From: a virus
Lineage: Duplodnaviria; Caudoviricetes
Length of the DNA: 52,702 nucleotides
Virus record (IMG/VR): IMGVR_UViG_3300032277_000005
Location: 1 to 52,702 of that record
Strand: one strand, 5' to 3'
Of this stretch, positions 128-44,032 are shown piece after piece. Every line of letters starts with the position of its first letter. Position 1 is the stretch's first letter. The position numbers were made by a program, and so were the translations under genes. The notes beneath the pieces are model-generated. The model was not told the origin of the DNA. It did not search any database and saw only the letters and a list, made by a program, of their open reading frames with translations.

Positions 128-452
128 ACTCCTCGGCTACAGGGAAGGAAGCCCAGAAAACATTATCTGTAAGATAGACGCAATGCAAGATAGAGACTCA
201 ACTCTGTGGATAGGTGCATTCCGCTATTACTGTGGTCGCATGACAATAGCTGTAAGCGGATTTTGCGAAACAATGATCAGCAACATTGAAAACATTCCAG
301 ATGAAGCAGTGTCAATAATTAAGCGCGACCTAATTGAGGCTTTTGCTGATGACGACCGGGATCGCGAAGTTGGGAATGCCGTAAAACGACTTGGTATGGA
401 CTGCGATCGGCAGAAATGGCTGGAGGTTCTAGCCGCGATAAGCGGAGCCTAA
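90..452 (+). CDS. cassette-borne hypothetical protein
   Basis: ORF 57..452, likely ATG at 90; bounded by GTTAGGCTC (62) and GAGCCTAAC (445-453). Confidence 0.75.
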   Translation: MNDDELIAKISEKLLGYREGSPENIICKIDAMQDRDSTLWIGAFRYYCGRMTIAVSGFCETMISNIENIPDEAVSIIKRDLIEAFADDDRDREVGNAVKRLGMDCDRQKWLEVLAAISGA

Positions 453-499
453 CAAAGAGATAGACGGCGCACCGCGTCCGTTGCATCGAGGTGTTATGA
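447..499 (-). mobile_element. attC-like site (short family A)
   Basis: GCCTAAC...GTTATGA hairpin; shares AGAGAT..GCATCGAGG(T/C)GTTA with sites at 2317 and 44279. Confidence 0.8.
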
Positions 500-589
500 G
501 TAATACAAGCGAACATTAAATAACGGAGATAATATGAAAACACTAGAAGAAGTACAAGCGCAGTTACTAGGCGAGAAGGAGAGTAAGTA

Positions 590-2322: not shown

Positions 2323-2369
2323 CAGAGAGATCGGAGGCGCGTAGCGACCTCTGCATCGAGGCGTTATAG
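2317..2369 (-). mobile_element. attC-like site (family A)
   Basis: AGCTAAC-AGAGAGATC...GCATCGAGGC-GTTATAG. Confidence 0.8.
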
Positions 2370-2546
2370 ACCCGCAACAATACGGAGTGAAAGGCAATAT
2401 GAGGATAGGACAAGGCATAGCTCGTGCTGCGCTTGTGGCCGGGGCTACAGTGCTTGAGATTTTTGACAAGCCAGCGGCGGGTTTGTGGGCCGTTATTGTT
2501 GTATGGGTTTTCCTAGCAGACTGGCACCTAAAAGAGATAGGCAAAG

Positions 2547-3029
2547 ATGACTAACCCAACACACATAACAGCAGACACCCTGCCCGGCATTATCGACAAC
2601 CTGAAAGCGGCTTGTGAGTCAGACAAAGATTACCAGTCGTCAATAACGCTGTTCGATAACTCACTGAAAGCCCGCCAGAGGGCGCTGGCTAACTGTTGGT
2701 ACAAAGATATAGCCGATAGCGAGGGTTATACATCAGGCTACGCAGAGGCGCTTTGCAAATATCATTACGGGTTCCGCATCAGGTGTGAGAATGACCCGGA
2801 TTTAGAGCGCATTATTCGCAGTATGCTTGACGGCAGGGCCTACGATGCAAAGCTTAAAATAATAGAGGTGTATCGTGAGTTCTTCCCAATACTGAGAAGC
2901 AAAGACGGAATGTCCACAGAGCAGCAAGGCCGATACCTATTCGAGATACAGCGCGGTATGGGTGCAGAGGGAATATTCCTATCAACACCTAAAGAGCGAT
3001 CACTATTGAGTTACCCGGAGGCAGGATAA
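2547..3029 (+). CDS. NinB/YbcN-like recombination protein
   Basis: SLKARQRALANCWYKDIA and STEQQGRYL..I motifs; position among nin-like genes. Confidence 0.55.
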   Translation: MTNPTHITADTLPGIIDNLKAACESDKDYQSSITLFDNSLKARQRALANCWYKDIADSEGYTSGYAEALCKYHYGFRIRCENDPDLERIIRSMLDGRAYDAKLKIIEVYREFFPILRSKDGMSTEQQGRYLFEIQRGMGAEGIFLSTPKERSLLSYPEAG

Positions 3030-3307
3030 TGGCTAAGAAAACAAAAATAAGGCAGTCAGCTAGAAACGAGGCTTGTTCGCTTCGCGTATCGCCACAGTGC
3101 CAAGATGGCGAGACAGTTGTTTTCTGCCATCTAAACAGCCCGAACAAAGGCATGGGCATCAAAAGCCCTGATATTTTCGGCGTGTACGGCTGCTACTGGT
3201 GTCATCAACAACTTGACTCAGGCAATGTAAATTACAGCGACAAACTAAGGGCGCTGATGGAAACACAATACAAGCTGGTCGAAAAAGGGCTTATTAGTTA
3301 TGGGTAA
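3029..3307 (+). CDS. DUF1364/YbcO-like HNH-fold protein
   Basis: IRQSARNEACSLR..C..ETVVFCHL..GMGIK..D..GCYWCH. Confidence 0.75.
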   Translation: MAKKTKIRQSARNEACSLRVSPQCQDGETVVFCHLNSPNKGMGIKSPDIFGVYGCYWCHQQLDSGNVNYSDKLRALMETQYKLVEKGLISYG

Positions 3308-3743
3308 GAATGTTGTTATCGGGTGTGACCCAGACTCAAAAGCTCATGGCGTGGCTGTTTACATGGATGGGAGGTTGATAGAGCTACGCAGCTTTGAGCT
3401 GCTAGAGCTACAGCAATACATCGAGCAGGACTGTTGTGGTTCTAACAGTATAGAGCTGCATATCGAAAATGTTTGCGGGGTAAGTGCGGCATTCAACGCA
3501 AGGGATAGGAAAACAAATCTCAATGTGAAGTTAAAAATTGCGCAGCATATTGGAATGTGCAAGCAAGCCCAGGTTGAAGTTGAAAGAATGGCTGAGGCTA
3601 ACGGCGTGAAAGTAGTTAAGCACAAAATATCTAAGATGTGGAAAAAAGACAAAGCGCAATTTGAGAAGGTAACAGGCTGGAGTGGGCATAGTAATGAAGA
3701 CACGCGCAGTGCAAGCTGGTTTGGCTATCTAGGCTGTAAATAA
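3300..3743 (+). CDS. RuvC-like Holliday junction resolvase
   Basis: IGCDP, HIEN and NEDTRSA acidic motifs of the RNase H fold. Confidence 0.55.
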   Translation: MGKNVVIGCDPDSKAHGVAVYMDGRLIELRSFELLELQQYIEQDCCGSNSIELHIENVCGVSAAFNARDRKTNLNVKLKIAQHIGMCKQAQVEVERMAEANGVKVVKHKISKMWKKDKAQFEKVTGWSGHSNEDTRSASWFGYLGCK

Positions 3744-3757
3744 ATATAAATTAGCGC

Positions 3758-3786
3758 TTGCATTAGCGCACATAATATAGTATACT
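3758..3786 (+). promoter_or_regulatory. sigma70-type promoter
   Basis: TTGCAT-17 bp-TATACT, followed by a CCAGC..GCTGG hairpin and GGAG RBS. Confidence 0.65.
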
Positions 3787-3834
3787 GGTTTCACCAGCTA
3801 AGGGAAGCTGGCTTTTATTAAACCGGAGAAAGCT

Positions 3835-4071
3835 ATGATTTATGCACAAGTTGGAACAATGCGGAAGGCAGGGTTAGCCGCGAAGTGGGGAAGGTTGAAA
3901 GGAGGTGCGCCAGCCATGTTTGTTAGGAACCCGGCTAGCGACCTAAAACACCAGCGGGAAAAGTGGTGGCATTTTGACGAGGCCATGCAAAAGTTAATGA
4001 CCGCCGAGGGAGTGGTCAAAGGGTTTGATTCTGCGACGTTGTTGGGGGGTATTTTTAGCATTAAAGCATGA
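3835..4071 (+). CDS. hypothetical protein
   Basis: ORF with RBS downstream of promoter. Confidence 0.6.
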   Translation: MIYAQVGTMRKAGLAAKWGRLKGGAPAMFVRNPASDLKHQREKWWHFDEAMQKLMTAEGVVKGFDSATLLGGIFSIKA

Positions 4072-4319
4072 ATGATTGCGATTATTGCAGAGACAGCGAC
4101 GGCGACCTATATAGTTGCCCGAACTGTCACGGCGAAGGATTTAATATAATGACACCAAAAACAAACGCACAACTACAAAAGACCCGCGACGATAAGCAGC
4201 GGGCAATGGGGCGCACTGGGCGCAAGGTCTGGGCGACACCAGAGGAACACGCGCATATTAATCAATGCCTGGCCAAGTACCGAAAAAAGCAGGAAAGGCT
4301 AGCAAGGAAAGCACAATGA
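4068..4319 (+). CDS. hypothetical protein with CxxC pairs
   Basis: ORF coupled by ATGA overlap. Confidence 0.55.
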   Translation: MNDCDYCRDSDGDLYSCPNCHGEGFNIMTPKTNAQLQKTRDDKQRAMGRTGRKVWATPEEHAHINQCLAKYRKKQERLARKAQ

Positions 4320-4675
4320 CTGACATAACCGGAACATGGGCCACCATCCCCGACTGCCCTAAGTACGAGTGCCTTTACGATCAGTCGAAGGGTACAAAGG
4401 TGCGGTTTAAAAAGACGGGGCCCGCTATACGCAACGGGATTAGCCGAAACGGCAGAAAGGCTGGCAAGTATTTAGAGGTTGGGCATGATGGGATGTTGGC
4501 TATAAAAAATCACCCAAACATGATGGCTTGTAGATGGACACCGCAAGAGTTGTGGGAGCACACATTTAAAAGCAAGCGCCTAATCACACCGGCAGAGCGC
4601 AAAGAAATCAGAATGCGCGAGGCGGCAGAGAGAAGGGCAGCAAATCAACTAAACAGGGATATGATAAGTGAGTGA
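4316..4675 (+). CDS. hypothetical protein, NUMOD4-like N-terminus
   Basis: Likely ATG at 4316 (MTDITGTWATIPDCPKYE). Confidence 0.5.
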   Translation: MTDITGTWATIPDCPKYECLYDQSKGTKVRFKKTGPAIRNGISRNGRKAGKYLEVGHDGMLAIKNHPNMMACRWTPQELWEHTFKSKRLITPAERKEIRMREAAERRAANQLNRDMISE

Positions 4676-5096
4676 AATAATGAAGATCAGGCTGCTGTCT
4701 GATTCAGCGACAGTACCAAGCAGGGCGACCAAGGGCAGCGCTGGTTATGACCTGAGTTGTGACAAGGGTTTTATCCTACAGCCCAATGAGCGGCGACTGA
4801 TCGGCACTGGGTTGGCTATAACGCTGCCTGTAGGGTCGTGGGGCGAAGTAAGGTCACGATCAGGGTTGGCGTCAAAGTACGGCATCGACGTTCAGGCAGG
4901 GACGATAGACCAGGATTATATCGGGGAGTTAATGGTGCTGCTGGTTAACAACGGCAATAGGCCGCTACGGTGTGAAACCGGCGACAGGATTGCACAGCTA
5001 GTCGTCCAAAAATGCATGAAGCCAAATATTATGGTAGTGCCGTCGCTGGATAAAACAGACCGTGGCGATGGTGGCTTTGGGCACACTGGGAAATAA
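4668..5096 (+). CDS. dut: trimeric dUTPase
   Basis: All five motifs: AGYDL, RSG, GTIDQDYIGE, GDRIAQL, RGDGGFGHTG. Confidence 0.95.
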   Translation: MSEIMKIRLLSDSATVPSRATKGSAGYDLSCDKGFILQPNERRLIGTGLAITLPVGSWGEVRSRSGLASKYGIDVQAGTIDQDYIGELMVLLVNNGNRPLRCETGDRIAQLVVQKCMKPNIMVVPSLDKTDRGDGGFGHTGK

Positions 5097-5151
5097 CGCT
5101 TTAGCTAAATCGCGCAGCGTAGCGGAGTCGAATTTCAGCGCGTTGTTAGGC
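5091..5151 (-). mobile_element. attC-like site abutting the dut stop codon
   Basis: Minus reading GCCTAAC-AACGC-GCTGAAAT...ATTTAGC-TAAAGC-GTTATTT. Confidence 0.9.
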
Positions 5152-5164
5152 GCATTACGGAGTA

Positions 5165-5395
5165 ATGAGAATGGGCATAAATAGATATAAAAAAGACCAC
5201 AATATAGATGGGTGGCATGTAGTGGACACTGAGCGCGGAGGGATATTGCACGCCGATGATATTGTTAAACGCTTAAACGAATATGAGGCTCTTTTGGCTG
5301 AGGCCGATGAGTACTTAAGCATCAATGAATTAACAAGCATTGGCAGTGGAAGCATTCTTCATCAGAAGTTTATAGCGATAACAGGCAAATACTAA
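5165..5395 (+). CDS. cassette-borne hypothetical protein
   Basis: ORF; ends GTTAGGCG (5145) and CGCCTAAC (5396-5403). Confidence 0.7.
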   Translation: MRMGINRYKKDHNIDGWHVVDTERGGILHADDIVKRLNEYEALLAEADEYLSINELTSIGSGSILHQKFIAITGKY

Positions 5396-5442
5396 CGCCT
5401 AACAGCACAGGCAAGCTAGCTGCAATCAACAGGGCAACCCCA

Positions 5443-5685
5443 ATGAACCCAACACTTAAATACAGATGCGGAGAGTGCGGCGACTCGCACAACGACCACG
5501 ACGAAGCACTCGAGTGCTGCCCTCCACAAATAAACGAAGTGTATCTGTGTGGGCACTGCCATGAAGACTACGGCCACGACGAAGACGCCGCCGAAAATTG
5601 CTGCGATGACGTTGACCCGGACGCCCTACCAATAGTAAGCCAACAAGAACTCGAAGCTGCAGGCCAAATGAGGCTCTGCGCATAA
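5443..5685 (+). CDS. Cys-rich acidic small protein
   Basis: Two CxxC...CC repeats. Confidence 0.7.
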   Translation: MNPTLKYRCGECGDSHNDHDEALECCPPQINEVYLCGHCHEDYGHDEDAAENCCDDVDPDALPIVSQQELEAAGQMRLCA

Positions 5686-5738
5686 CGCTTTAGGTAAAGC
5701 GCCGAGGTACGAGGTCGATTTTGACCGACTTGTTATAT
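5680..5738 (-). mobile_element. attC-like site
   Basis: Minus reading ATATAAC-AAGTC-GGTCAAAA...CTTTACC-TAAAGC-GTTATGC. Confidence 0.9.
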
Positions 5739-5751
5739 TTTGGAGGTTGGT

Positions 5752-5940
5752 ATGAAATTTGAAGATAGCACTGGATGGATTTGGTTTTTTGTTGACGAGT
5801 ATGGCGATGTAGGCACTGAATTTTTTTGGCTTGAAGAAAAGGAAGGTGAAATGCCGTACCAAATGGAAAAGGCTAGTTGGGATACTGAGAATAAAAGCTC
5901 TATACCAACAAGGGCAAGAATAGCGGAATTAAAGATATAA
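5752..5940 (+). CDS. cassette-borne hypothetical protein
   Basis: GGAGG RBS and ATG 5752; ends GTTATAT and ATATAAC. Confidence 0.7.
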   Translation: MKFEDSTGWIWFFVDEYGDVGTEFFWLEEKEGEMPYQMEKASWDTENKSSIPTRARIAELKI

Positions 5941-6022
5941 CCGCGGATTTAACCGGAGAGGAATGGAGCAATGAGTGAAACGAATAGCGGAATGACGAAT
6001 CCGGTTGAAACCTTTGTTAGGG
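5935..6022 (-). mobile_element. attC-like site (family B) encoding RBS, ATG and leader of the next gene
   Basis: ATATAAC...GGAG..ATGAGTGAAACG...GACGAATCCG...GTTAGGG. Confidence 0.85.
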
Positions 6023-6306
6023 TGCCGTGGCCTGAGGATAAATTGCCCTTGAAATTGAAAAACCCTAAGTGCCCGATTTGTGGCGGGGCATTATTTATTA
6101 CTGGGGTTAACGCTTGTGAGCAGGAGGATAACGGCGACTGGATAGCAAGCGAGATTGACATTGATTGCGAAAACGAGCCGGACATTGACAGTGACGAATG
6201 GGAAGACTGGCACAAGTGGCACTACAGCATGCCATATGTGGATTGGCTGCCGATAGACCGGCAGATTTTGAAAATGGTGCAGAGGACGTTTTACTTTGCA
6301 CCCTAA
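5971..6306 (+). CDS. cassette-borne zinc-ribbon protein starting inside attC
   Basis: CPICGG motif; ends GTTAGGGTGC and GCACCCTAAC. Confidence 0.7.
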   Translation: MSETNSGMTNPVETFVRVPWPEDKLPLKLKNPKCPICGGALFITGVNACEQEDNGDWIASEIDIDCENEPDIDSDEWEDWHKWHYSMPYVDWLPIDRQILKMVQRTFYFAP

Positions 6307-6360
6307 CCTTTACTTAACCGGTGCAGCTTTGCTGCATCCGCGTTTAAGTTGTTGTTATGT
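6301..6360 (-). mobile_element. attC-like site
   Basis: Minus reading ACATAAC-AACAA-CTTAAACGCGGATGCAGC-AAA-GCTGCACCGGTTAAG-TAAAG-GTTAGGG. Confidence 0.9.
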
Positions 6361-6383
6361 TTCGATTGTACAGATTCTAAGCT

Positions 6384-6445
6384 GTGAACTTATTTCACTT
6401 TATTTGTGTTATTTGCTTGACTATGTGAACTTAGTGCACTATAAT
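6384..6445 (+). promoter_or_regulatory. cassette-internal sigma70 promoter with two operator-like imperfect palindromes
   Basis: TTGACT(6417)-17 bp-TATAAT(6440); GTGAACTTATTTCAC (6384) and GTGAACTTAGTGCAC (6425). Confidence 0.8.
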
Positions 6446-6492
6446 TAGTTTCAAGAGTTAGGGAATGGCCCTAACAAAACGGAGCTAAGACA

Positions 6493-6681
6493 ATGATTAA
6501 ATCAGTAGACGAACTAAAAGCAGGCGACATTCTTAAAAACACTAATCATGGTTTTGAGATTGAAATTAAAGAGATTGGTAAAAAGAACACCCGCTACATC
6601 AACTTAGAGACTGGTGAGAAAGTAAAAAGCTTCACTACAAAATTCAACTTCATGCTACGCGAAGGAGTGTTTGTTAAGTGA
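6493..6681 (+). CDS. small basic hypothetical protein
   Basis: GGAG RBS; first gene of the promoter-bearing cassette. Confidence 0.7.
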   Translation: MIKSVDELKAGDILKNTNHGFEIEIKEIGKKNTRYINLETGEKVKSFTTKFNFMLREGVFVK

Positions 6682-7121
6682 ACGCAAAACAGACCAGATT
6701 AGCCCGACAAATGCTGGGCTTAAACCAAACCGAGTTTGCTGCACTGCTTGGCTGGACAAGCAAAAGAAACATAGTGAATTTAGAGCGCGGCGATAAAGAA
6801 GTAATGACACAAACAGCTTTAGCAATTGAATGCTTACTAAGAAGAAATAACAAATTTGGAGAGTTTGAGATGATTAATAAAATGCAGCCAGTTTTGGATT
6901 TTATATTAACTGAGATTAAGCGCGTTAATGGAAGCCGATCCGACAATACCACCATTTCTCAAGACGAAACAAATCAAGAGCTGGTTGATATTTTTCACGA
7001 TACTGCAAATAAGTTTACTGATATTGACTTTGAATTAACTGACAGCGAGGACGATCTAATAGAGCTTTTTGGCTACAAGGGCTATTGCTCTATTCGTGAA
7101 GCTGAAAGCGGTGCGTATTAG
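6678..7121 (+). CDS. XRE-family HTH regulator with C-terminal extension
   Basis: ARQMLGLNQTEFAALLG..IVNLERG. Confidence 0.8.
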   Translation: MNAKQTRLARQMLGLNQTEFAALLGWTSKRNIVNLERGDKEVMTQTALAIECLLRRNNKFGEFEMINKMQPVLDFILTEIKRVNGSRSDNTTISQDETNQELVDIFHDTANKFTDIDFELTDSEDDLIELFGYKGYCSIREAESGAY

Positions 7122-7123
7122 AA

Positions 7124-7185
7124 ACATAACCGATAGCTTAACGGCTGGCGCTTTTGCCAGTCCGATTTACAGCGCCTTGTTAGGC
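7124..7185 (-). mobile_element. attC-like site
   Basis: Minus reading GCCTAAC-AAGGC-GCTGTAAA...GTTAAGC-TATCG-GTTATGT. Confidence 0.85.
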
Positions 7186-7199
7186 GCGGGAGAGACTAG

Positions 7200-7409
7200 A
7201 TGCCAGTTACAGATTACAGCGATGCCGATTTAGTTAAGCGAGCGGTAAGAAACGCAAAACCAAACATAAACGGAACCGCACCTCGATGGGTTGCCGTAAT
7301 GGATACTTTCGGCCTTGGCAGAACATACGCATACGAATTATGCCGGTTGCATGACTTGAATCCAGACGACCCGATTGAGGGCGCACGTTGTATTTCCTGC
7401 AACCCTTAG
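7200..7409 (+). CDS. cassette-borne phage hypothetical protein
   Basis: ORF; ends GTTAGGCGC and GCGCCTAAC. Confidence 0.7.
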   Translation: MPVTDYSDADLVKRAVRNAKPNINGTAPRWVAVMDTFGLGRTYAYELCRLHDLNPDDPIEGARCISCNP

Positions 7410-7410
7410 C

Positions 7411-7488
7411 GCCTAACCCCATAAACACGCGGAAACGAAACAAGCGAAGCGGCGTGTAGTGAATCGCCGTGATTTTACATTGTTATAT
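7411..7488 (-). mobile_element. attC-like site (own cassette apparently truncated)
   Basis: GCCTAAC...CACGCGG..CCGTGATTTT..GTTATAT; no matching ATATAAC end downstream. Confidence 0.75.
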
Positions 7489-7581
7489 TTTGGAGATTTT
7501 ACGATGAGTGAGTTACAAACGGTAGCGGCAAGGCTCTGCAAACAATTGAGATGTTAATTAAGGCGATGAAGGTGAGAGATA

Positions 7582-7914
7582 ATGATTAAATCAAAACGCG
7601 GCGTATCAATCGACAACTGTCGGCCCGAGATACTTATAGCCTTGATCTCAGTTGACCCTATCTATGCCAAGCATGGTGTAGATACTGTGGTCACGTCCGG
7701 GTCAGAGCCTTACAAGCACAGTGCTTTGCGCTCGGCACACTATAGGGGTGACGCTGTGGACTTGAGAATCAAAAACGTAGAGGTCGATAAAAGGGCGCGG
7801 GTATTCCAAGCAATCAAGCGCAAGTTAGGCCCGGATTTTGTTGTTCTGCACGAGGGTAAGGGTAAGGCGTGGGAGCATATTCACATTCATTGGTCGCCTA
7901 TATTCCACAGCTAG
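7582..7914 (+). CDS. endolysin, peptidase M15 family
   Basis: SAHYRGDAVD and HIH zinc-binding motifs. Confidence 0.85.
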   Translation: MIKSKRGVSIDNCRPEILIALISVDPIYAKHGVDTVVTSGSEPYKHSALRSAHYRGDAVDLRIKNVEVDKRARVFQAIKRKLGPDFVVLHEGKGKAWEHIHIHWSPIFHS

Positions 7915-7974
7915 CATAAGCTCTGGTTAGTGGTATAATGCAAAGCCTATGCGTCGCAAGGGCGCTCAAACAAG

Positions 7975-8490
7975 ATGGCCGGAATGGCATTAAGGGCAGC
8001 GATGAGTGACGACGACCAGGGTATATCTATGCTAAGAGATGAGATGTCTCAGATTAAGAGCTGGATAAAGGCGACAGATGCAACAATTAAAGGTTTTCTG
8101 TCACGACTGGTCGATGCGGAGGAGCGGGTAGCTCGCGCAGAGGAGCGAGGCGCGGCAGCCGAAGAGAAGACAGCGACCCGTATGGCTTGGCTGATTATGC
8201 TATTTATAACGAGCTTAGGCGGTCTTGTTGTGATGATGTTGGATGTTTCGGCAAGATCTGATGAAAAGATCAACGCTATCGAAGATAAAACGATGGAGGT
8301 ATTAATTGCCGTTCACGGTAGCAGCGTACTAATGCAACAACATCTCATTACCGCCGGTAATGTTAAAAAGGAGATCTATCACGCTGTTGAGGCTGTAGAA
8401 AAGTCATTGCAAACATCAATAGAAAGAACCCTCAACGCTGTAAAAGACAATAGATCCGCGATACTTAATCACGAAAGGGCGGAAAGGTAA
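7975..8490 (+). CDS. single-TM coiled-coil membrane protein (lysis region)
   Basis: Hydrophobic WLIMLFITSLGGLVVMML segment. Confidence 0.55.
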   Translation: MAGMALRAAMSDDDQGISMLRDEMSQIKSWIKATDATIKGFLSRLVDAEERVARAEERGAAAEEKTATRMAWLIMLFITSLGGLVVMMLDVSARSDEKINAIEDKTMEVLIAVHGSSVLMQQHLITAGNVKKEIYHAVEAVEKSLQTSIERTLNAVKDNRSAILNHERAER

Positions 8491-35004: not shown

Positions 35005-35343
35005 ATGGCGTTTTTATCAGAGGAAGACTACGAGGCTAGAAAGAAGTCTAAAGTAGCCAAGCTACCCGCAGCAGACAAAACAGGCGATGCTATCAAAGAG
35101 ATTGCCAAGGTATCTGCCACGCTAGCCGATGTTTCTACCAATACGCTCCGTATGGCCACTGAGAGCGCCGCTGAGAGCGCCACACAGACACAAGAGCTTA
35201 TTACTGCGCTAACTGCCGCCATTGCAAAGATGGGGCAGCACAAGGGCGCAAGGCCAGCCCCAGTAAGACTTGTGATTAACCGCAAAGACCGTCTTATAGA
35301 CACTATCGATGTAATACCTCTTGTCAAAAAGGCTGATAAATAA
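35005..35343 (+). CDS. hypothetical protein
   Basis: Coupled ORF. Confidence 0.6.
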   Translation: MAFLSEEDYEARKKSKVAKLPAADKTGDAIKEIAKVSATLADVSTNTLRMATESAAESATQTQELITALTAAIAKMGQHKGARPAPVRLVINRKDRLIDTIDVIPLVKKADK

Positions 35344-38300
35344 TGTCCAAAGTTTCATGTATTAATACTACTGCCAACCTTGATAAGCGTGATGTAAAGA
35401 CATTCAAGGCTGATATTAAATCAGGAGCCAAACCAGAAGATGTTGTTGAGATTCTTATTAGTGACGCCTTAGCAGAACACGAAAGTCTACTTGAAATCAT
35501 CCGAAGCAAGGGTGGTGTTGTTGAGGGTTATGTTCCCCCGGTAGAGGAGTTAAAGCCCGCCGCCGACGTTAAGGGGGAAGAGATAGAGGCGACCAAGGTA
35601 GGAAAGAAAAAGCCACGAGCAACCCCACCTGAAAAGAAAGCTCAGGCCGCAAAAAAAACTGAAGCTAAACCAAGCCCCACAAGCGCCCGCCCCGGAATCC
35701 TAACCGAAAGCAAAGCCAAGATAATAAGGTCTATGGCTAAAGATGCTGGAGTGAAAAAAGGGTCGCCGGGGTACGAAGATGCTATGACTGAAATAGCGTC
35801 TAAGTATGATGATGAGCTTGAGCGAGCGGAGTTTTCACTGCCTTTTGAAGAGTTTAAGGCTTTGCCTGATAACGGGCGCACAAGTGATGAGCAGTTAAGA
35901 GTTATTTACGACAGTGTAAGGGAAGAGCTGGGGATAAAAGAAAAGACCGCTGCGCCGGTAGACGAGCCTTTAGACGAGGAAGTGCGATTTCAAATCGCAG
36001 TTGATGATAGTAATCAGGCTATCATTGATGAGATTGACGAACTTTCAAAAAAGGCTAAAGCTCGTAAGGCTGAGTCTGAGCCAGAAGGAATGTCGATTGA
36101 TCTTGTTTTGCCTGAGCTTGATTATTTGTCAGATAAAGAAAAAACTCGATTCCATGATCTTAAGCAATCCCTCCCAAGTCAAGGGCAGGAGGCGACTGAT
36201 GCGAAAGCAAGAAACAAGGCGCGTGTTGCTGCGCGAAAAAATGCCAAGGAAAAGACTGTTGAGCTGGCTGACACCTCTGATGTTGGCGGCGAAATGTCAT
36301 TTAATCGCAGAGGCAAGGGGATAACTGCCAGCGAAATAAGAAACACTGAAAACGAGACAGAGCGCGTAGCACTCGCCGTAAAGTCGAAACTATGGAAGCG
36401 CCCAGATTATCAAGTCATGGTTGATGAGGGTGTTCAACCGGCAATCGCCCATGTAATAAAGCAAATATACGACAGCATCCCAACAAAACCCCCGTTTACT
36501 GGCGATAAGTATCTCAATGCCTACGCTGAAACTGTAGAAGCTACCCGGCAAGCCATAGATGACGTGCTGCTGAATCCCAAAAAGCTCGCAGCAATAATGG
36601 CCGCTATAAACGTGCAGATACAGAAAAGACAGGCTGTGTTCGGCGGCAAGGGCATGGATATATCGGAGTTGATGAACAAGGCGTTAGACCCTGTTACTGG
36701 CGCTGACCCGTTAGAGTCGATCACTGATATTGTCTTCCCCGAGAATGACGAAGGCGCTCGGTGGGGGCGCAAGAACGTAGAGGGCAACGATAAGGCTAAT
36801 GCCACCAACAACCTGTATAAAAACACAACCATATCAGTCGAGATGCTAACCAAGGCGCTTATAGCGATTGATAAGAAAGGCTGGCCTGCCAAGCAAGAGT
36901 CGTGGCAGCGGTCGTACCGCATAGAAGAGAAAGACGGCGAATTCCGTTTAATCAAAAACAAACGATACACGCCAGAAAGCATACATAAATCTAAAGATGA
37001 CGCGATAGAGGCCGCAAGGGCGCTTACCAAAAAAAGCAAGGATGATAAGTTTAAAGAACCTGAAACTCCCGTGGAGAACTCAAGGCGATTAGGCGATGAC
37101 TCTCGCGGCGGCAGGAACGTATCTTCCAAAGAACTGCAAGAAAGGTTCGGCTTAAAGGCTATAAATTTTGGCAACTGGATGAGCAAGCCCGCTGCGGCTA
37201 AAGAAAGGCAGGGCCATGTTAACAGTGCTTATGACGCCCTTAGTGATCTTGCGATAACCTTAAATCTTCCTGATAAAGCCATGTCCTTTGATGGTCAGCT
37301 GGGCCTGGCTATCGGCGCTCAGGGCGCTGGTGGTAGGAATGCCGCGCATTTTGTCGCAGGTGTTAATGAGATCAACCTAACCCGAACGTCTGGCGCAGGC
37401 AGCCTGGCCCATGAGTGGGCGCACATGCTTGACCATTACTTTGGTGTCCAGTCAGGAATGGCTGCAAGTTCAGACCCGTTCGCGTCATGGGCGACACTTG
37501 GGGTGAGGAAGATAAAAGAAGGTTCAGAAATTCGCCCGGAGATGGCAGAGGCATTTGGCACAATCGTCGAGGTCATGCGGAAAAAGAAAGAATCCATTGA
37601 GGCTATGAAGGCAAGGGAGCAGAAACACGCTGACCTCGCGGTCGAATCACTTAGTAAATTTATCGACAGCAACGACATAAGAAGCATTGTTGCAGGGGAC
37701 AAAGATGCAGAGGCGGCGCTTGCCAATATAGAGAAGGGCGGCAAGTCAGATTATACCGAGTGGCCCCCTGTTGGTAGGCGAAGAAAGCCAGAAGGGTACA
37801 CGTCGGCAGACGTTAAGTTAATTGCTGACCTAGCAGGATGGGATTTTGCGAAGGCTGACAAACTTAACAGCGAGGCTGGTGCTGTAAGGGTTTATGTTGG
37901 CGATTCCAAGATGGCTCAGAAGCAGCTTACATTGCACACTGATTTTTACCGTAACGCATCGGGGCTAGAGAGTAAAAGCGGCAAGCCTTATTGGACAACG
38001 CCGCATGAAATGTTTGCAAGGGCATTCGAGACATACGTTACCGACAAGCTAGACGGCAAAGATAAACTAAACAGCTATCTTGTAAGCGAGTGGAAAAACA
38101 ATACAGACGGCGAGATGGAGGCTCTTTTTAACGACGGCCCTAACTTCCGATACCCGCGTGATGCTGATAGAGCTGCGATCAACGAAGCCTTTGACACTCT
38201 TATTGGCGGAATAAAGACAAAGGAGACTGACAGCGGTGTGGCGCTGTATAGCCGCAACTACAAAACCAATCCAGCAGCAGCAACCGTCGCTGAAATCAAC

Positions 38301-41300
38301 GCAGAACTATCGACCGCTGTAAGCCGCTTAGACAAGGCGATAAAGCAGCGAGTACAGATCGTTCAGACTACAAGCGATCTTCCCGTAGACGTGCCTACAG
38401 ACGTTCGTGGAATGTATTACGACGGTATTGCCTACGTTGTCGCTGATAACACGCCTGTATCTGACGCAAAGACCGTATTAACCCACGAGATAGTGGGCCA
38501 CATGGGCCTGGAGGAAATGCTAGGCGATTCATTCTCTGACGTTATCGGCAAGATCAAGCGCATGAAGCGAGTAGGTAACAAGCAGGTCGCGGAGATTGTC
38601 AAAACACTAAAGAGAAGCTATGTCGATGAAAACGGGAATTACGCACTAACACCTAATCAAGAAGCAAGGGAAATACTCGCCCATATTGCCGAGACCGACC
38701 ACAACCACTCATTAGTCAAACAGATTATTGCCAAGCTAAAACTATGGCTGGCACGAATGGGGCTGGCTAACAAGGATAGCGCGGAGGTTGGCTACCTGAT
38801 TGCACAGGCCGCAAGGTATGTTGAGGGCAAGGGTGATGCTGTATTAATAACTTCTACGGGAAATATAGAGCCTTATTTCGCTAAAGCCTATCATGGATCG
38901 CCGCACAAGCATGATGGAAGGCTAGACCCCTCTAAGATAGGCACAGGCGAAGGCGCACAGGCTTACGGTTATGGGTATTATGTGGCTGAGAGCGAAAAAG
39001 TCGCCGACAGCTATAGAGTGCAGCTTTCTGACGCGAAAGTAACCTTTGACGGGAAGGTTGCAAAAGACCCTTACCATGTAGAAGAAGGGCGAATGATTAA
39101 AGAATCATATCGGATTGAAATAGCTGAGATAGCACTGTCTTTGCGAGGCCGGTATAAAAATAACAAAGGTAATATGCAGAAAGCTATAATAGAGAATGGG
39201 GCCAAATATATTAATGACAGGGATTCCTTATCGCAATATAGAAAAGACACAAACTATGTTTTGAGCAACTTGGATAGATTCGACTATGAAAAAGGCCACC
39301 TATACGAATACGAAATAGACGACGACGCCATAAGCAAGATGCTTGATTGGGATGCGCCTTTGAGCGAGCAGAGCGACAGTATTCAGGGTGTCGCGGCAAG
39401 GGAGCTTGCTTTAGAAACCGGGATAACCCCAGCCCATGAAAATTTTGAGGCTATGGTGGGGCTGGCTAAGAATCAACTAAATGCTAAGACTGGCGAAGAT
39501 CTATATAAAAGCATGGTGAATAGGCTTGGCATGGATGCAGAGGTGTCACCGGACGAGATTGCTAGCCGTTATTTGTGGGCAGAGGGCGTCCCCGGCATTA
39601 AATACTACGACGGGCAATCAAGAGGCGAGGGGGAGGGAACCCGCAACTTTGTCATATTCCCTGGCGCAGAAGATATTGCAACGCCTATAAGCCGTAATGG
39701 AGTAATGTTTAGCAGAGAAACCCCAGGCACTCCAGAGTACGAAGCCGCTAAAGCTAAGGGCCTGGATATGTCCAAAAAAGCCAGGATGCAGCGAGCGCGG
39801 GATATGGGCTTTGATACCGATACCGTTTGGTATCATGGGACAGGTCGCCAATTCAGTTCATTCGACCCTAAAGCTGAGGGGGAGTTTTCTTCAATAGACA
39901 CTAATAATGTTGTTACTTTTACCACAGATGAAAATATAGCCAAAAGATACGCTAAGGAGTCAGCCGTTTCTGAAAAACAATGGGACGACGAACTAAACAG
40001 GTATATAAAAAATGGAAACCCGCGCATTGTTGAGGCATATTTGCCCTCAAACATAAAAAACATTGATGCTATCGGGAGACACCATGATTCTAAATGGATG
40101 ATTGGAGAGCAAGAAAAAGCGCGAAATCAAGGGTTTGATGGCGTTCGCTTTAATGGGTTAGCTGACGATGTTTACTACAATCCACTGGCAGGCGCGTCAG
40201 ATATAACACAGATATTCGACCCCTCTAATATCCGCTCAGTAAACGCCGCCTTCGACCCTATGGAAAAAGACAGTGCTGAACTGTTGTTTTCTCGGGGTGA
40301 TGGGAACTGGAAGGATGATTCCACAGGCTTCGCCATACCAGACGAGACTTGGAAGACAGTTGCTATCCGAAAGCTACAGGATAAATTTAAAGTCCTGAAA
40401 GACTTACAGGCTAACATTATTGAATCTGGAGGTGAGATTAGCGAGGAGGCAAACGCCTATATTGCGGAAGAGCTATTCCACGGCAAGGCGGAAAACGATA
40501 TTGCCATAATGAGGGATGAATTTGTCGCGCCAATGGCTGAGAAGATGGCGGAGTCTGGTATCACACAGGCACAGCTTGACAAATATCTTTATGCGCTACA
40601 CGCCGAAGAGCGGAACGATCATATAGCGTCAATAAACCCTGATATGCCCGACGGCGGGTCTGGGATGAAGACATCTAAAGCCAAAAAAATTATTGCCGAT
40701 ATAGAGCAGGGAGGCAAGGCGGCTGACTACAAAGACCTTGCCGGCATTGTCCATGCGATGCTAAGAGAGCGCCGCAGAGTTATTATTGACGGCGGCCTTG
40801 AGGATGACGGCCTAATTGATGCATGGGAAGATAAGTACAAAAACTACGTTCCGTTAAAAGGCTTTGCTGAGAACGAGCTAGATGACTCAAGACCAAAAAC
40901 AGGGCAAGGCTTTAACATTGGTGGCAAGGAATCCAAACGTGCACTAGGCCGAGGCTCAGAGGCCGCTAGCCCATCATCGTTCGCTATTATCGACCTGACA
41001 GAAACATTGGTTCGCAATCGCAAGAACGAAGTGGGTAACGCGCTGTTAAAGCTGATTGAAGACAACCCGCAAGAAAGCTATTGGGCATCTTATACCGAAG
41101 ACAACCCAGACACCGACCGGCGCATTGTGAAAGTGGATGGCAAGGATGTTGTCAAAGAGACAGTCATCCCAATGGCTTTGATGAAAGACCAATACTTCAC
41201 CACTAAGCGTAATGGAAAAACGCATTACATGAAGCTGGAAGACCCTCGCTTAATGGACGCGATGAAGAACCTTGGCGTAGAGCATGGCGGCACTGTCATT

Positions 41301-43040
41301 AAGACTATGGGTAATATCACAAGGATAATGTCTGCGCTGAACACAAGCTACTCACCAGAATTTATTACGGGCAATTTTTTAAGGGATGTCCAAACCGCCG
41401 TGTTAAACCTAAAGGCCGAGCAAACAGCCAGTAGCGGGAAAATTAACGGTGAGGAAATTGTATCGCAGACGGTAAAAGATATTCCTTTAGCCATGCGGTC
41501 GGTGTATGCGTCTCTTTCTGGCAAGAAAATAAAAGGAGCCAAGGGTAAAGAGTTTCAAGATTGGTTTGAGGAGTTCAAGAAAGCTGGCGCTAAAACAGGC
41601 TGGTTTGACATGAAGGATCTCGACGGCCAAGCAAGAGAAGTAGAGCAGCTTGTCGAAATGTCCAGCGGCACCACGAAAGGCAATGCGTTGAAGTGGGCTA
41701 AATCCGCAGCAGGCGTTGTTGAAAATATGAATTCAGCGGTAGAGAACGCCGTTAGATTATCCGCTTACGTCAATGCTCGCAGAGCTGGAATATCTGAGCA
41801 AAAAGCGGCGTCTCTTGCCAAGAATATGACTGTAAATTTCAATCGAAAAGGGGAGGTAGGCGCGACACTAAACGCTCTATTCATGTTTAGTAACGCATCT
41901 ATCCAGGGTGTGGCCAACTTCGCTAGGACTATGGGGACGCTCAAAGGCGACAAATCGTTGAAGTGGCAAAACCTTAACAACGCGCAAAAGCTAGGCGTAG
42001 GTATGGCCGCAGGCGCTTTCTTCATTGCGATGGCTAACAGGTCTTCTGCTGGAGAAGATGACGACGGGGTAAACTGGTTCGACAAGGTGCCGGATTACGT
42101 CAAAGAGAGAAACATCGTCATTATGAAATCTTTGTTTGGGGGCGAGCAGGACGGCACATATTGGAAGATCCCGCTCCCTTATGGCTACAATATTTTCAAT
42201 GTCCTTGGTGATTCAATGGAGTCAGTGGCGTTTAGCGACAAGCCAGTCACTAATACAGCGGGAAGACTCACGCTTGCCACGCTTGGCTCATTCTCGCCTA
42301 TCGGGTTCCAAGACTCTAAAACCGTTATGGGCGGCGTATTAAAGAACGCGACCCCGACAGTATTTAAGCCGGTGACAGACATAGCTCTAAATGAGAACTT
42401 CTTTGGCAGCAGCATCTATAGTGAAAACTTCCCGTTTGGCACACCTAAGCCTGATAGCGCAATGGCTCGCAGGTCAACACCAGAAGGCTACCGCAAGGTG
42501 GCTGAATGGCTTAACGAAGGCACAGGCGGCAGCAAGCAGCGTCCAGGGGCTGTTGATATAAACCCCGATGTTATGAGGTACATCGCTGATTACTTTGGCG
42601 GGGCGGCTTACGGATTCTTCGGCTCTAAAGTCCCAGACGTAGTGCATCGCGCAATTAACGACGTTGATGTTGAAGTTAACAGAATGCCATTTGTTAGCCG
42701 TATATCGGGGCGAGTGATGCACTATGATGATATGGGCGACTTTTACGAGCGCAGGGATGAGATAAACCAGATCCACGCAGAGTACAAAACGCTTGAGGGT
42801 GGCGAGAGAGCCGGTTTTTACCGCAAGTATGGCGACAAGATGCGGTTATCCGCTGGAATTAAATCAGCAGAGAAGCGGCTAAAGCTGCTACGTAAGCAGC
42901 GTGACCGAGTGTACGCGAACGAAGATCTTAGCTTTGCGCAGAGGGATGAGAGATTGAAAGACGTACAAGCGAAGATGAAGAAGGTGGTTGACGAGATAAA
43001 TAAAAACTACAACAACGCCTTAACGAAGTCGCTGAAGTGA
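35343..43040 (+). CDS. giant polyvalent protein (zincin peptidase-like, ADP-ribosyltransferase-like and LPD38-like domains)
   Basis: 2565 aa; HEWAHMLDHY; HEIVGHMGL; AYHGSPH..GTGEGAQAYG; WYHGT..F..FD; C-terminal KIPLPYG..NENFFGSSI. Confidence 0.8.
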   Translation: MSKVSCINTTANLDKRDVKTFKADIKSGAKPEDVVEILISDALAEHESLLEIIRSKGGVVEGYVPPVEELKPAADVKGEEIEATKVGKKKPRATPPEKKAQAAKKTEAKPSPTSARPGILTESKAKIIRSMAKDAGVKKGSPGYEDAMTEIASKYDDELERAEFSLPFEEFKALPDNGRTSDEQLRVIYDSVREELGIKEKTAAPVDEPLDEEVRFQIAVDDSNQAIIDEIDELSKKAKARKAESEPEGMSIDLVLPELDYLSDKEKTRFHDLKQSLPSQGQEATDAKARNKARVAARKNAKEKTVELADTSDVGGEMSFNRRGKGITASEIRNTENETERVALAVKSKLWKRPDYQVMVDEGVQPAIAHVIKQIYDSIPTKPPFTGDKYLNAYAETVEATRQAIDDVLLNPKKLAAIMAAINVQIQKRQAVFGGKGMDISELMNKALDPVTGADPLESITDIVFPENDEGARWGRKNVEGNDKANATNNLYKNTTISVEMLTKALIAIDKKGWPAKQESWQRSYRIEEKDGEFRLIKNKRYTPESIHKSKDDAIEAARALTKKSKDDKFKEPETPVENSRRLGDDSRGGRNVSSKELQERFGLKAINFGNWMSKPAAAKERQGHVNSAYDALSDLAITLNLPDKAMSFDGQLGLAIGAQGAGGRNAAHFVAGVNEINLTRTSGAGSLAHEWAHMLDHYFGVQSGMAASSDPFASWATLGVRKIKEGSEIRPEMAEAFGTIVEVMRKKKESIEAMKAREQKHADLAVESLSKFIDSNDIRSIVAGDKDAEAALANIEKGGKSDYTEWPPVGRRRKPEGYTSADVKLIADLAGWDFAKADKLNSEAGAVRVYVGDSKMAQKQLTLHTDFYRNASGLESKSGKPYWTTPHEMFARAFETYVTDKLDGKDKLNSYLVSEWKNNTDGEMEALFNDGPNFRYPRDADRAAINEAFDTLIGGIKTKETDSGVALYSRNYKTNPAAATVAEINAELSTAVSRLDKAIKQRVQIVQTTSDLPVDVPTDVRGMYYDGIAYVVADNTPVSDAKTVLTHEIVGHMGLEEMLGDSFSDVIGKIKRMKRVGNKQVAEIVKTLKRSYVDENGNYALTPNQEAREILAHIAETDHNHSLVKQIIAKLKLWLARMGLANKDSAEVGYLIAQAARYVEGKGDAVLITSTGNIEPYFAKAYHGSPHKHDGRLDPSKIGTGEGAQAYGYGYYVAESEKVADSYRVQLSDAKVTFDGKVAKDPYHVEEGRMIKESYRIEIAEIALSLRGRYKNNKGNMQKAIIENGAKYINDRDSLSQYRKDTNYVLSNLDRFDYEKGHLYEYEIDDDAISKMLDWDAPLSEQSDSIQGVAARELALETGITPAHENFEAMVGLAKNQLNAKTGEDLYKSMVNRLGMDAEVSPDEIASRYLWAEGVPGIKYYDGQSRGEGEGTRNFVIFPGAEDIATPISRNGVMFSRETPGTPEYEAAKAKGLDMSKKARMQRARDMGFDTDTVWYHGTGRQFSSFDPKAEGEFSSIDTNNVVTFTTDENIAKRYAKESAVSEKQWDDELNRYIKNGNPRIVEAYLPSNIKNIDAIGRHHDSKWMIGEQEKARNQGFDGVRFNGLADDVYYNPLAGASDITQIFDPSNIRSVNAAFDPMEKDSAELLFSRGDGNWKDDSTGFAIPDETWKTVAIRKLQDKFKVLKDLQANIIESGGEISEEANAYIAEELFHGKAENDIAIMRDEFVAPMAEKMAESGITQAQLDKYLYALHAEERNDHIASINPDMPDGGSGMKTSKAKKIIADIEQGGKAADYKDLAGIVHAMLRERRRVIIDGGLEDDGLIDAWEDKYKNYVPLKGFAENELDDSRPKTGQGFNIGGKESKRALGRGSEAASPSSFAIIDLTETLVRNRKNEVGNALLKLIEDNPQESYWASYTEDNPDTDRRIVKVDGKDVVKETVIPMALMKDQYFTTKRNGKTHYMKLEDPRLMDAMKNLGVEHGGTVIKTMGNITRIMSALNTSYSPEFITGNFLRDVQTAVLNLKAEQTASSGKINGEEIVSQTVKDIPLAMRSVYASLSGKKIKGAKGKEFQDWFEEFKKAGAKTGWFDMKDLDGQAREVEQLVEMSSGTTKGNALKWAKSAAGVVENMNSAVENAVRLSAYVNARRAGISEQKAASLAKNMTVNFNRKGEVGATLNALFMFSNASIQGVANFARTMGTLKGDKSLKWQNLNNAQKLGVGMAAGAFFIAMANRSSAGEDDDGVNWFDKVPDYVKERNIVIMKSLFGGEQDGTYWKIPLPYGYNIFNVLGDSMESVAFSDKPVTNTAGRLTLATLGSFSPIGFQDSKTVMGGVLKNATPTVFKPVTDIALNENFFGSSIYSENFPFGTPKPDSAMARRSTPEGYRKVAEWLNEGTGGSKQRPGAVDINPDVMRYIADYFGGAAYGFFGSKVPDVVHRAINDVDVEVNRMPFVSRISGRVMHYDDMGDFYERRDEINQIHAEYKTLEGGERAGFYRKYGDKMRLSAGIKSAEKRLKLLRKQRDRVYANEDLSFAQRDERLKDVQAKMKKVVDEINKNYNNALTKSLK

Positions 43041-43183: not shown

Positions 43184-43217
43184 AGTCAGCCCCTATGTTA
43201 AGTAAGGGCTGATTATA

Positions 43218-43430
43218 TCACTCTCCAGCTTTCGCTATAAATTCACCGCACCACCATATCTCTCGAACTGTCGGGAAGTAAAAATTATAAGTGTCGAGAA
43301 ATGCAAGCTCGCTATCTTGCGCCTGTCTTACAGGAGGGTATCGCCTACATTCCCCTAGCGTGAAAATTTCGTCGTCTCCATCGGAAAGAAAATCCCAGTA
43401 TTTGCAATCAATACATTTATCCTTTTTCAT
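43218..43430 (-). CDS. small Cys-rich phage protein
   Basis: CIDCKYW..GECRRYPP..WCGEF. Confidence 0.7.
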   Translation of the reverse strand: MKKDKCIDCKYWDFLSDGDDEIFTLGECRRYPPVRQAQDSELAFLDTYNFYFPTVREIWWCGEFIAKAGE

Positions 43431-43433
43431 GGG

Positions 43434-43715
43434 CTAATCAAACTTCTCAAGCTCAAACTCAAACCGGCTAGGCTTTCGCGTCGCTTCAACCTCGATAGTC
43501 TCATAGGTATTAGTGTTGTTATTATAAGTCTCTATCGTTGTCGTCCCTCCGTATGTCCTTACACTATCCACGTCAATATCCTTTGTTCGCCCGGTTGAGT
43601 GGTTGTAGGTGCGTATATTCTGCCCTGCCTCCACTCCCGCCGGCTCTTTCCAGTAGTCGCTGGCCGAGGCTGTGACTGTGGTCGTTGCTAGCATTGTCGC
43701 CATAAGTAGTTTCAT
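43434..43715 (-). CDS. exported hypothetical protein
   Basis: Signal peptide MKLLMATMLATTTVTASA. Confidence 0.6.
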   Translation of the reverse strand: MKLLMATMLATTTVTASASDYWKEPAGVEAGQNIRTYNHSTGRTKDIDVDSVRTYGGTTTIETYNNNTNTYETIEVEATRKPSRFEFELEKFD

Positions 43716-43734
43716 TGTATATCCCTATTGTTGA

Positions 43735-43989: not shown

Positions 43990-44032
43990 AATATCCTCTC
44001 TCCGATTGGCGGTTTCACATCCCGCTATCCTT

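Follow-up and report, generated by a model that had tools for sequence, protein, structure and literature searches.

A probable integron-type gene cassette behind the dUTPase stop codon of a phage without an integron integrase

The DNA analysed here, called the window throughout, is a complete viral record of 52,702 nt (IMGVR_UViG_3300032277_000005) with a terminal repeat of 127 nt, representing a genome of about 52.6 kb. Immediately behind its dUTPase gene, dut, lies a unit of 306 nt which, judging from its sequence, is probably a genuine integron-type cassette, coded on the bottom strand of its recombination site (attC) and with the crossover point on the dut stop codon. The elements around this junction are listed below; a vertical bar marks the crossover point, ORF stands for open reading frame and RBS for ribosome-binding site.

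The dut junction and the attC sites of the genome

4668-5096, + strand: dUTPase gene dut (phrog_135, E 1.4e-50), stop codon TAA at 5094-5096
5091-5151, + strand (equivalent to the attC bottom strand): attC site S7, 61 nt, with 5' box AAATAAC (5091-5097), L-box hairpin and 3' box GTTAGGC (5145-5151)
5097-5402, + strand: cassette, 306 nt, made up of C, attC body, RBS, ORF and closing half-box GCCTAA
5165-5395, + strand: cassette ORF (ORF76), 76 aa, or 74 aa from a second ATG at 5171; weak match to phrog_37446
5397-5403, + strand: closing R-box GCCTAA|C, with no attC after it
5403-5685, + strand: unit lacking an attC, with ORF80 (5443-5685; zinc-ribbon-like, phrog_32948), ending GCATAA|C

An earlier interpretation made from the letters alone (the sequence-only reading) had described dut as ending in GGGAAATAA|C and running directly into an attC. 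This was confirmed, the stop codon at 5094-5096 and C5097 together forming the crossover point AA|C. The boundaries it gave for the cassette, 5097 and 5402, are also correct, with the closing GCCTAA|C at 5397-5403 and non-attC DNA beyond. GTTAGGC at 5145 and GCCTAAC at 5397 are perfect complements in 7 of 7 positions (8 of 8 if the next base is counted), so that a circular form of 5097-5402 would carry a 7-bp R box. In its present place the 5' box is supplied by dut (AAATAAC) and is complementary in 4 of 7 positions. On the + strand of the whole genome GCCTAAC occurs four times, in every case at an attC box. The description of the cassette as 'solo' proved wrong: it is the first unit in a run of seven attC sites (5091-7488) in a genome that holds about 20.

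Sites of the attC type are marked by inverted RYYYAAC and GTTRRRY boxes 50-140 nt apart. The 20 sites found in the genome measure 49-88 nt and follow the pattern xxxTAAC...GTTAxxx; 12 lie on the + arm (S1-S12) and 8 on the - arm (T1-T8) of the early region. Apart from S7 they are, together with associated units:

52573-52643 (S1, spanning the terminal repeat), 447-499 (S2) and 1352-1425 (S3), + strand: attC sites
1813-1875 (S4), 2070-2130 (S5) and 2317-2369 (S6), + strand: attC sites
5680-5738, + strand: attC S8, heading the cassette 5686-5940
5941-6306, + strand: cassette with attC S9 (5935-6022), within which its ORF111 (5971-6306) begins
6307-7129, + strand: two-gene cassette with attC S10 (6301-6360), an ORF at 6493-6681 and a helix-turn-helix (HTH) regulator at 6678-7121 (phrog_14076)
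7130-7488, + strand: cassette with attC S11 (7124-7185) and ORF69 (7200-7409), closed by GCCTAAC (7411-7417) of S12 (7411-7488)
44279-44327 (T1), 44534-44590 (T2), 44736-44817 (T3) and 45083-45154 (T4), - strand: attC sites
45320-45388 (T5), 45606-45670 (T6), 45864-45919 (T7) and 46307-46391 (T8), - strand: attC sites
46650-46693, - strand: 3' half-site
48931-49113, + strand: lipoprotein gene, followed to 49165 by a 5' half attC with an RBS and an ORF of 8 codons

Two further junctions pointed out by the sequence-only reading were found as described. The gene at 5443-5685 ends in GCATAA|C and attC 5680-5738 begins there, and the lipoprotein gene ends in ACTAA|C with the 5' half-site (49114 to about 49165) directly after it. 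The related viral contig L003/L021 has a complete attC whose first 50 nt are 88% identical to this half-site.

If the 3' box of each site is compared with the next 5' box downstream, in the order in which the ORFs are read, the two are perfect 7-nt complements in 16 of 18 adjacent pairs. Permuted partners gave a mean of 2.2 perfect pairs, and none of 100,000 permutations reached 16. Within a single hairpin, only one of the 20 sites has two perfectly complementary boxes. Such a chain of complementary boxes is the hybrid-site signature of integron cassette arrays, and it follows that GTTAGGC (5145) and GCCTAAC (5397) belong to one cassette. With at least two attC sites and no intI on the replicon, the set is by definition a CALIN (cluster of attC sites lacking an integron integrase). 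A complete integron, with intI and attI adjoining the array, is not present in the phage. A six-frame search of the complete genome for tyrosine recombinases with PF00589 gave no match at E<=1 (the control was positive in 14 of 14 genomes). No integron integrase was found in the window or in five related viral records. Three of these five have no tyrosine recombinase at all, and the other two have ordinary integrases scoring 49 and 45 bits against TIGR02249 (cut-off 265). An IntI encoded by the phage was rejected on these results.

Some features of the sites deserve mention in their own right. In one attC subfamily (5935-6022; 44736-44817, 45320-45388 and 46307-46391, all on the - strand; and the half-site 49114-49165) the loop contains an RBS and start codon, the encoded leader begins MSE(A/T)K, and the downstream ORF starts inside the site and reads through the GTTRRRY box. 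The sites at 1813-1875 and 45606-45670 (- strand), on opposite arms, are 98% identical over 50 nt and differ in their 5' spacers and neighbours. A role of the attC sites as terminators was considered and dropped, since only the hairpin at 5712-5731 scores and the count is not above that in shuffled sequences. A scan for AAC...GTT hairpins by structure yielded mostly false positives in coding DNA, and one for closing boxes without attC, with criteria that were too strict, nothing usable.

Polarity of the sites and their bacterial counterparts

It might be expected that a cassette ORF belongs with the attC downstream of it. The sequence-only reading had proposed the inverse polarity, and this is supported: the coding strand would be the attC bottom strand, with the AA|C crossover on TAA stop codons. 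Because the chain of complementary boxes fits either polarity, five other lines of evidence were used.

Strand identity was judged from folding, since bases bulged out on one arm of the hairpin mark the strand that is recombined (the bottom strand); the aadA1 attC of plasmid R100 served as the reference. The folded top strand of this reference has its single-base bulges in the 5' arm, whereas in its bottom strand they are found in the 3' arm. In the attC at 5091-5151 it is the 3' arm that bears the single-base bulges, as in the aadA1 bottom strand. The same holds for the sense strand of 7 of the 8 phage sites that formed the main stem, at positions nearly those of the aadA1 bottom strand; S2 has one single-base bulge on the 5' arm in addition. 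Work published by MacDonald in 2006, Bouvier in 2009 and Nivina in 2016 reportedly places the crossover AA|C at the 5' end of the bottom strand. The junctions in the phage were observed at exactly this point, which argues that the proposed inversion is right and that, as far as sequence comparison can tell, the phage coding strand is the attC bottom strand. That recombination prefers the bottom strand is also stated in the portion of Richard et al. (2024, Sci Adv, PMC13108822) used here.

Comparison of orthologous loci points in the same direction. The window and the relatives L020, L021 and L022, whose dUTPases are 93-96% identical in amino acid sequence, share dut as far as ...ATAA|C and then continue with four different attC bodies and ORFs; the attC of L022 belongs to another subfamily. 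L021 lies on the contig of L003, where a second stretch (5002-5116) matches the window (450-565) from TAAC onward and the upstream genes are unrelated. The cassette 5941-6306 was recovered at 99-100% identity, with unlike flanks, in contigs of the sequencing runs X2, X3 and X7, which represent metagenomes of three other studies (marine, beach sand and marine sediment). Of the five left loose ends, four put its left end at 5936-5938 and the fifth at 6016; its right end is at 6307-6309 in all three runs. The viral locus L039 encodes ORF111 with 90% amino acid identity and also breaks directly behind CCCTAAC; a search of genome contigs with ORF111 gave nothing. ORFs that start inside the upstream attC, with their RBS located there, are ORF111 (S9), those behind T3, T5 and T8, and the one in L003 from 4775 onward. 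A unit of 82 aa present in L055, L066 and L062 ends in AGCTAA|C in all three copies.

A degenerate pattern of one attC family, written in the phage sense, was found, apart from the window, in 11 stretches of 10 IMG/VR contigs. Among the 12 matches examined in 10 loci, which reduce to 9 distinct sites as two phages are present twice, 10 (7 of the distinct sites) are preceded by a frame of 36 or more open codons that terminates with the TAA of TAAC, and in 11 (8 distinct) an ORF on the same strand begins within about 25 nt behind the site.

The same pattern run against genome contigs gave six matches. Three (L041, L042 and L045) look like chance and were dropped; the others lie in two Cycloclasticus metagenome-assembled genomes (MAGs), G001 and G002, and in a 3-kb contig (L043) binned as Legionellaceae. 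Both Cycloclasticus MAGs encode an integron integrase (TIGR02249, 442 and 433 bits), the one of G001 at G001:C8:145942-146886. The chromosomal integron of G001 (G001:C8:147052-157100, equal to L053 11053-21089) comprises at least 12 cassettes in a perfect chain of complementary boxes that starts from the attI junction G|TTATGT and stops at an attC whose 3' box could not be found. Eleven of 12 cassette ORFs are on the top strand. The exception is cassette 2, whose attC matches the phage family on the intI (bottom) strand; behind this attC and an RBS it has an ORF of 72 aa on the bottom strand, with the stop codon inside GCCTAA|C. Four DNA matches connect the window with the Cycloclasticus MAGs, all in or adjoining integron arrays and all on the intI strand. 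Three are attC sites: S11 (86% and 80%, the former to the attC of G001 cassette 2) and S8 (79%, to the attC adjoining intI in G002). The fourth is weak (E 9e-4) and covers about 52082-52133 of the window, where no site is listed. When the complete set of early ORFs from the window was searched by tblastn in the host loci, no match was obtained.

Sharing of whole units was seen with other phages. L055 is a 4.8-kb contig of G002 that carries intI, and its cassette adjoining attI and intI (1427-1707) is 100% identical over 281 nt to the contig L066 and 98.6% identical to L062. L066 is a phage contig, with terminase, portal, head-morphogenesis and major head genes beside the cassettes, and its positions 1-355 are 97.7% identical to L043 2096-2450. 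Of the four cassettes in L043 itself, two have the top strand as coding strand and two the bottom strand; the contig is short and its binning uncertain. Units shared with phages are coded on the bottom strand of the bacterial arrays, antisense to array expression. The host of the phage is probably, on these similarities, a Cycloclasticus-like marine gammaproteobacterium.

The classical polarity, in which an ORF goes with the attC downstream of it and crossover would be at G|TT in the sense of the ORF, can be weighed against these data. Stop codons in the first attC box are common in classical cassettes too, and the box chain by itself does not discriminate. If the arrangement were classical, however, genes should travel with their downstream attC, and dut keeps this site in none of the three relatives examined, ORF111 in none of three runs and the 82-aa unit in none of three copies. 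Moreover, G001 and G002 show a strand relation to intI opposite to the classical one. We therefore consider classical polarity extremely improbable.

Several observations nevertheless weigh against attC-led cassettes on the bottom strand, or against details of their origin. The unconstrained DNA fold gave the main stem in 8 of the 20 phage sites; the other 12 took up other folds and are uninformative. RNAalifold on a MAFFT alignment of 16 sites found no consensus structure and no pairs, a result explained by L boxes that are out of register in the alignment. In classical attC bottom strands the bulged bases are G and T; attC 5091-5151 has C and A instead. In a contig of X7 the N-terminus of ORF111 is a different one, joined on at 6016 (G|TTAGGG), and the 82-aa unit is preceded by three different attC bodies in L055, L066 and L062, its identity beginning near G|TTAGCT. 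The 55-nt body of attC 5091-5151 recurs nearly unchanged in the viral loci L056/L060 and L058/L065, where the ORFs on either side are different ones. Thus an attC body is not always tied to the ORF downstream, and some junctions are at the G|TT box. The cassette 5097-5402 is covered by the source run X1 only, with no second genomic context, and neither ORF76 by itself nor an alignment of 12 homologues matched any locus in searches of viral contigs. Finally, host assignment has metagenome bins as its basis and, for the window phage, only attC similarities of 79-86%.

Two of these points can be accommodated or qualified. A unit always ends downstream in AA|C; upstream it ends in G|TT where the attC body was exchanged or, where the body was kept, in AA|C one attC further upstream; frequent bottom-strand and rare top-strand events would give such mixed upstream ends, the alternative being homologous exchange within attC bodies. 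In X2, X3 and X7 most of 3800-7700, including 5097-5402, is without cover, so these runs are uninformative on the absence of the cassette. Among metagenome proteins ORF76 has 11 homologues with 63-96% identity. The N-terminal extension of one of them (P0004) could be guessed from its protein letters to be an attC translated through; this was not used as evidence.

History of the right junction

When and how the cassette 5097-5402 arrived is a matter that we can only infer. No attC, even a degenerate one, follows position 5403, so the site that would have told against the sequence-only reading did not turn up: between 5403 and 5700 the + strand has no GTTRRRY, and its lone GTT (GTTGACC at 5611) is inside ORF80. 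The ORF80 unit ends like a cassette, with the common box GCATAA|C, yet it has no opening attC and no GTTATGC in front. Homologues of ORF80 were found only in unrelated high-GC phages without attC and are uninformative on the junction. Two explanations of the right junction GCCTAA|C, insertion into a site that had no attC and loss of the attC of the neighbour, appear about equally probable.

According to the first, which is a real possibility short of a probability, a circular cassette was inserted by recombination between its attC and a secondary (attG-type) site, dut-TAA|C-AGCACAGG, the other strand of which offers G|TT. The right flank without attC fits this history, as do the exactness of both junctions at AA|C and the completeness of the cassette, which would have a perfect R box as a circle. 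The G|TT of the inferred target also agrees with the GWT consensus of attC x attG recombination given in the portion of Loot et al. (bioRxiv 10.1101/2022.09.11.507474) considered here. On the other hand, the predicted empty allele, dut-TAA|C-AGCACAGG, which the sequence-only reading had proposed to look for, was found neither in viral contigs nor among relatives, a point that tells against its interpretation. An exact 18-mer of the empty allele matched viral contigs twice (L006 and L007), both times inside coding sequence of an unrelated large (jumbo) phage, and these matches were set aside as chance. In all three relatives examined (dut 93-96% identical) another cassette with an attC stands behind the same TAA|C, and ORF80 occurs in no relative. 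The state before insertion would also already have contained a unit without attC ending in GCATAA|C, so that loss of an attC or some other irregular event is required anyway. The dut stop codon is a putative secondary landing site, with a non-att right flank and G|TT. It behaves as the fixed proximal recombination point of a variable array.

The second explanation, to which we give the same tentative credence, assumes ordinary attC x attC insertion in front of an ORF80 cassette whose own attC was later deleted (domestication). It accounts for the common GCATAA|C at the end of ORF80 and for the missing GTTATGC that should match it. Decay of attC sites is seen in this lineage, in the half-sites 46650-46693 (3') and 49114-49165 (5') and in a mini-attC of 30 nt in L021, and replication slippage readily deletes folded attC sites, according to the same excerpted source (Loot et al., bioRxiv 10.1101/2022.09.11.507474). 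A difficulty is that the deletion must begin exactly behind GCCTAAC and has left no remnant of an L box or 3' box. The mini-attC in L021 (equal to L003; 4086-4118) follows directly after dut and retains 5' box, 5' L arm, 3' spacer and 3' box. Without loop and 3' L arm, it is an example of attC decay by internal deletion.

Thirdly, 5097-5685 could be a single two-gene cassette in which GCCTAAC at 5397 is a mere relic. GCATAAC (5680-5686) does complement GTTAGGC in 6 of 7 positions, and multi-gene cassettes occur in this genome (6307-7129). This reading has to explain away the perfect complement (7 of 7, or 8 of 8 with the next base) directly after the stop codon of the first ORF, in a genome where 16 of 18 pairs are perfect complements, and we regard it as quite unlikely.

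Mechanism, related systems and further features of the genome

If the coding strand is the attC bottom strand, the AA|C cut would fall, in the reading direction of the genes, at the 5' end of every attC and there coincide with the TAA stop codon of the preceding gene, in the present case dut. A cassette recombining at TAA|C would add a gene to the operon and leave the upstream gene untouched, and it would bring its own stop codon and half-box for the next event. The enzyme, we believe with some reservation, would be the chromosomal IntI of the host, which would act in trans on the DNA of the infecting phage. Cassettes would enter just behind a TAA stop, by attC x attC exchange and occasionally at a bare site, and would be expressed by read-through from phage early promoters, some attC sites providing the RBS and first codons of the cassette ORF. 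The coding strand is G-rich in both early arms. It is the non-template strand of transcription and, if replication runs with transcription (its direction was deduced from skew only), would be the template of the lagging strand. The orientation found in the phage would thus maximise cassette turnover, and the same cassettes would be silent in bacterial arrays.

An entirely different explanation would need no integrase. The phage has a recombination set of its own:

46834-47955, - strand: RecT (PF03837, E 1.4e-22)
2547-3029: NinB/Orf (phrog_7283)
3300-3743: Holliday-junction resolvase (phrog_1770)

These proteins might shuffle modules by annealing at short conserved repeats, a mechanism also proposed for the promoter-early stem-loop (PeSL) cassettes of T4-type phages. 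Their presence in a genome without an integrase, junctions at both boxes of attC and identical attC bodies beside different neighbours would all be understandable on this basis. Annealing would not be expected to give TAAC junctions that stay sharp even where the attC bodies share no further homology, and the chain of complementary boxes is the product expected of site-specific exchange. Furthermore, the same units are found in bacterial integron arrays, one of them directly at attI adjoining intI. Recombination by phage functions alone thus seems unlikely, and integrase-mediated exchange is preferred in what follows.

CALINs in phages and insertion at secondary sites are already known; the complete integron and classical polarity do not apply here. 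The text of Qi et al. (2023, Front Microbiol, PMC9892861), in the part available, describes attC sites and cassettes in phage genomes without intI, marine ones included, and reports that phage attC sites were recombined by IntI1 in assays. The phage of the window agrees with these CALINs in having attC cassettes without intI. It differs from what that part of the paper describes (PMC9892861) in the number of sites, about 20 in one genome of 52.6 kb and in both early arms, in bottom-strand coding, in ORFs starting inside attC and in cassettes common to host arrays. Compared with a sedentary chromosomal integron, that of Cycloclasticus G001, there is agreement in attC family, box consensus, hybrid-site chain and at least one cassette of the same architecture. 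G001 possesses intI and attI, and 11 of its 12 ORFs are on the top strand; in the phage this gene and this site are absent, and all cassette ORFs examined are on the bottom strand. A full-text search for integrons of Cycloclasticus listed nothing relevant.

Loot et al. (bioRxiv 10.1101/2022.09.11.507474) state, in the sections drawn on, that IntI places cassettes at a bare GWT site, with expression from a resident promoter and the possibility of re-excision. The right junction 5402|5403 fits such attC x attG insertion. Those sections concern the chromosomes of E. coli and V. cholerae and classical cassettes (10.1101/2022.09.11.507474), whereas here the putative target is the stop codon of a phage operon. 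As to strand, the excerpted text of Richard et al. (2024, PMC13108822) says that folding is favoured when bottom strands are on the template of the lagging strand, and that excision in an inverted V. cholerae superintegron rose from <7e-5 to 3e-2. The phage would resemble this inverted superintegron, its bottom strand being the G-rich coding strand, which is expected to be single-stranded more often; the inversion in V. cholerae was engineered (PMC13108822, same text), whereas in the phage the orientation would be the natural state. In the accessible portions of the papers of Qi et al. and Loot et al., and among the titles and abstracts returned by full-text searches, we did not find early arms of about 20 cassettes, bottom-strand coding (the supplementary tables of Qi et al. 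may list orientations), ORFs starting inside attC, crossover on stop codons or near-identical units in host integrons.

A superficial resemblance exists to another kind of phage module, in that small early genes are flanked by repeated stem-loops and shuffled in modules. The PeSL mobile regulatory cassettes of T4-type phages, attributed to Arbiol, Comeau and Krisch (2010), are said to consist of promoter and stem-loop and to act by way of homologous recombination; unlike the cassettes of the window, they reportedly have no AAC/GTT boxes and no link to integrons. Between 4000 and 8000 the window has a single strong promoter-like site (6417-6445), away from the attC sites. This sigma-70-like promoter (11 of 12 matches) belongs to the cassette 6307-7129, whose boxes GTTATGT and ACATAAC are perfect complements; with its own promoter and HTH regulator this cassette could form a module that regulates itself.

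Integrons are regarded as devices of bacteria, and recent work views their arrays as banks of genes for defence against phages. The window suggests traffic in both directions, as a phage of virulent type without an integrase builds both its early arms from integron cassettes. We tentatively propose, as one joint reading that falls somewhat short of being probable, that a marine phage lineage has taken over the integron system of its host as its own device for gene exchange. Early accessory genes would be packaged as cassettes coded on the attC bottom strand; they would be inserted seamlessly at TAA stops of phage operons without an attI; in the phage their recombination would be easy, since the strand most often single-stranded is the one that holds the attC bottom strand; they would be silent (antisense to Pc) when deposited in bacterial arrays; and the arrays would form a shared reservoir of phage genes and bacterial defence genes. 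Exchange of cassettes by host IntI, if it occurs, would explain the quick swapping of small phage accessory genes, which are likely to be host-takeover or counter-defence genes. It would also provide a natural case of attC orientation tuned for high turnover and make the question of the origin of cassettes testable in a phage-host pair. Furthermore, the attC family could serve as a signal for host prediction in uncultured phages.

The general organisation of the genome is simple. Structural genes occupy about 9-43 kb, ending in a single ORF of 2565 aa (35343-43040), and the two early arms diverge from a regulatory region near 48.7 kb:

about 49.4 kb through the ends to about 7.5 kb, + strand: + early arm
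48.7 down to 43.2 kb, - strand: - early arm

No close isolate was present in the collection of isolate phages: tblastn with the terminase gave 48% identity at best and megablast of 3300-8000 no match. A distant blastn search with 43200-46900 returned a single match of 60 nt, to a Vibrio phage, and an Rfam search of the window matched no family. Three genes for HNH-type endonucleases lie in the early arms (590-1336, 3029-3307 and 49486-50028), one of them within the cassette region, and the relatives L003 and L062 carry similar ones. At 535-592 the window retains a remnant of 18 codons (MKTLEEVQAQLLGEKESK) of an ORF of 180 aa that is intact in L003 (5086-5628); MKTLEEVQAQLLGEKESK arose by an internal in-frame deletion within the cassette, away from any attC. 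Lastly, the block from NinB to dut (2324-5096) is bounded like a giant cassette, as it opens with C and attC S6 (3' box GTTATAG) and closes with AAATAA|C; its end boxes agree in just 5 of 7 positions.

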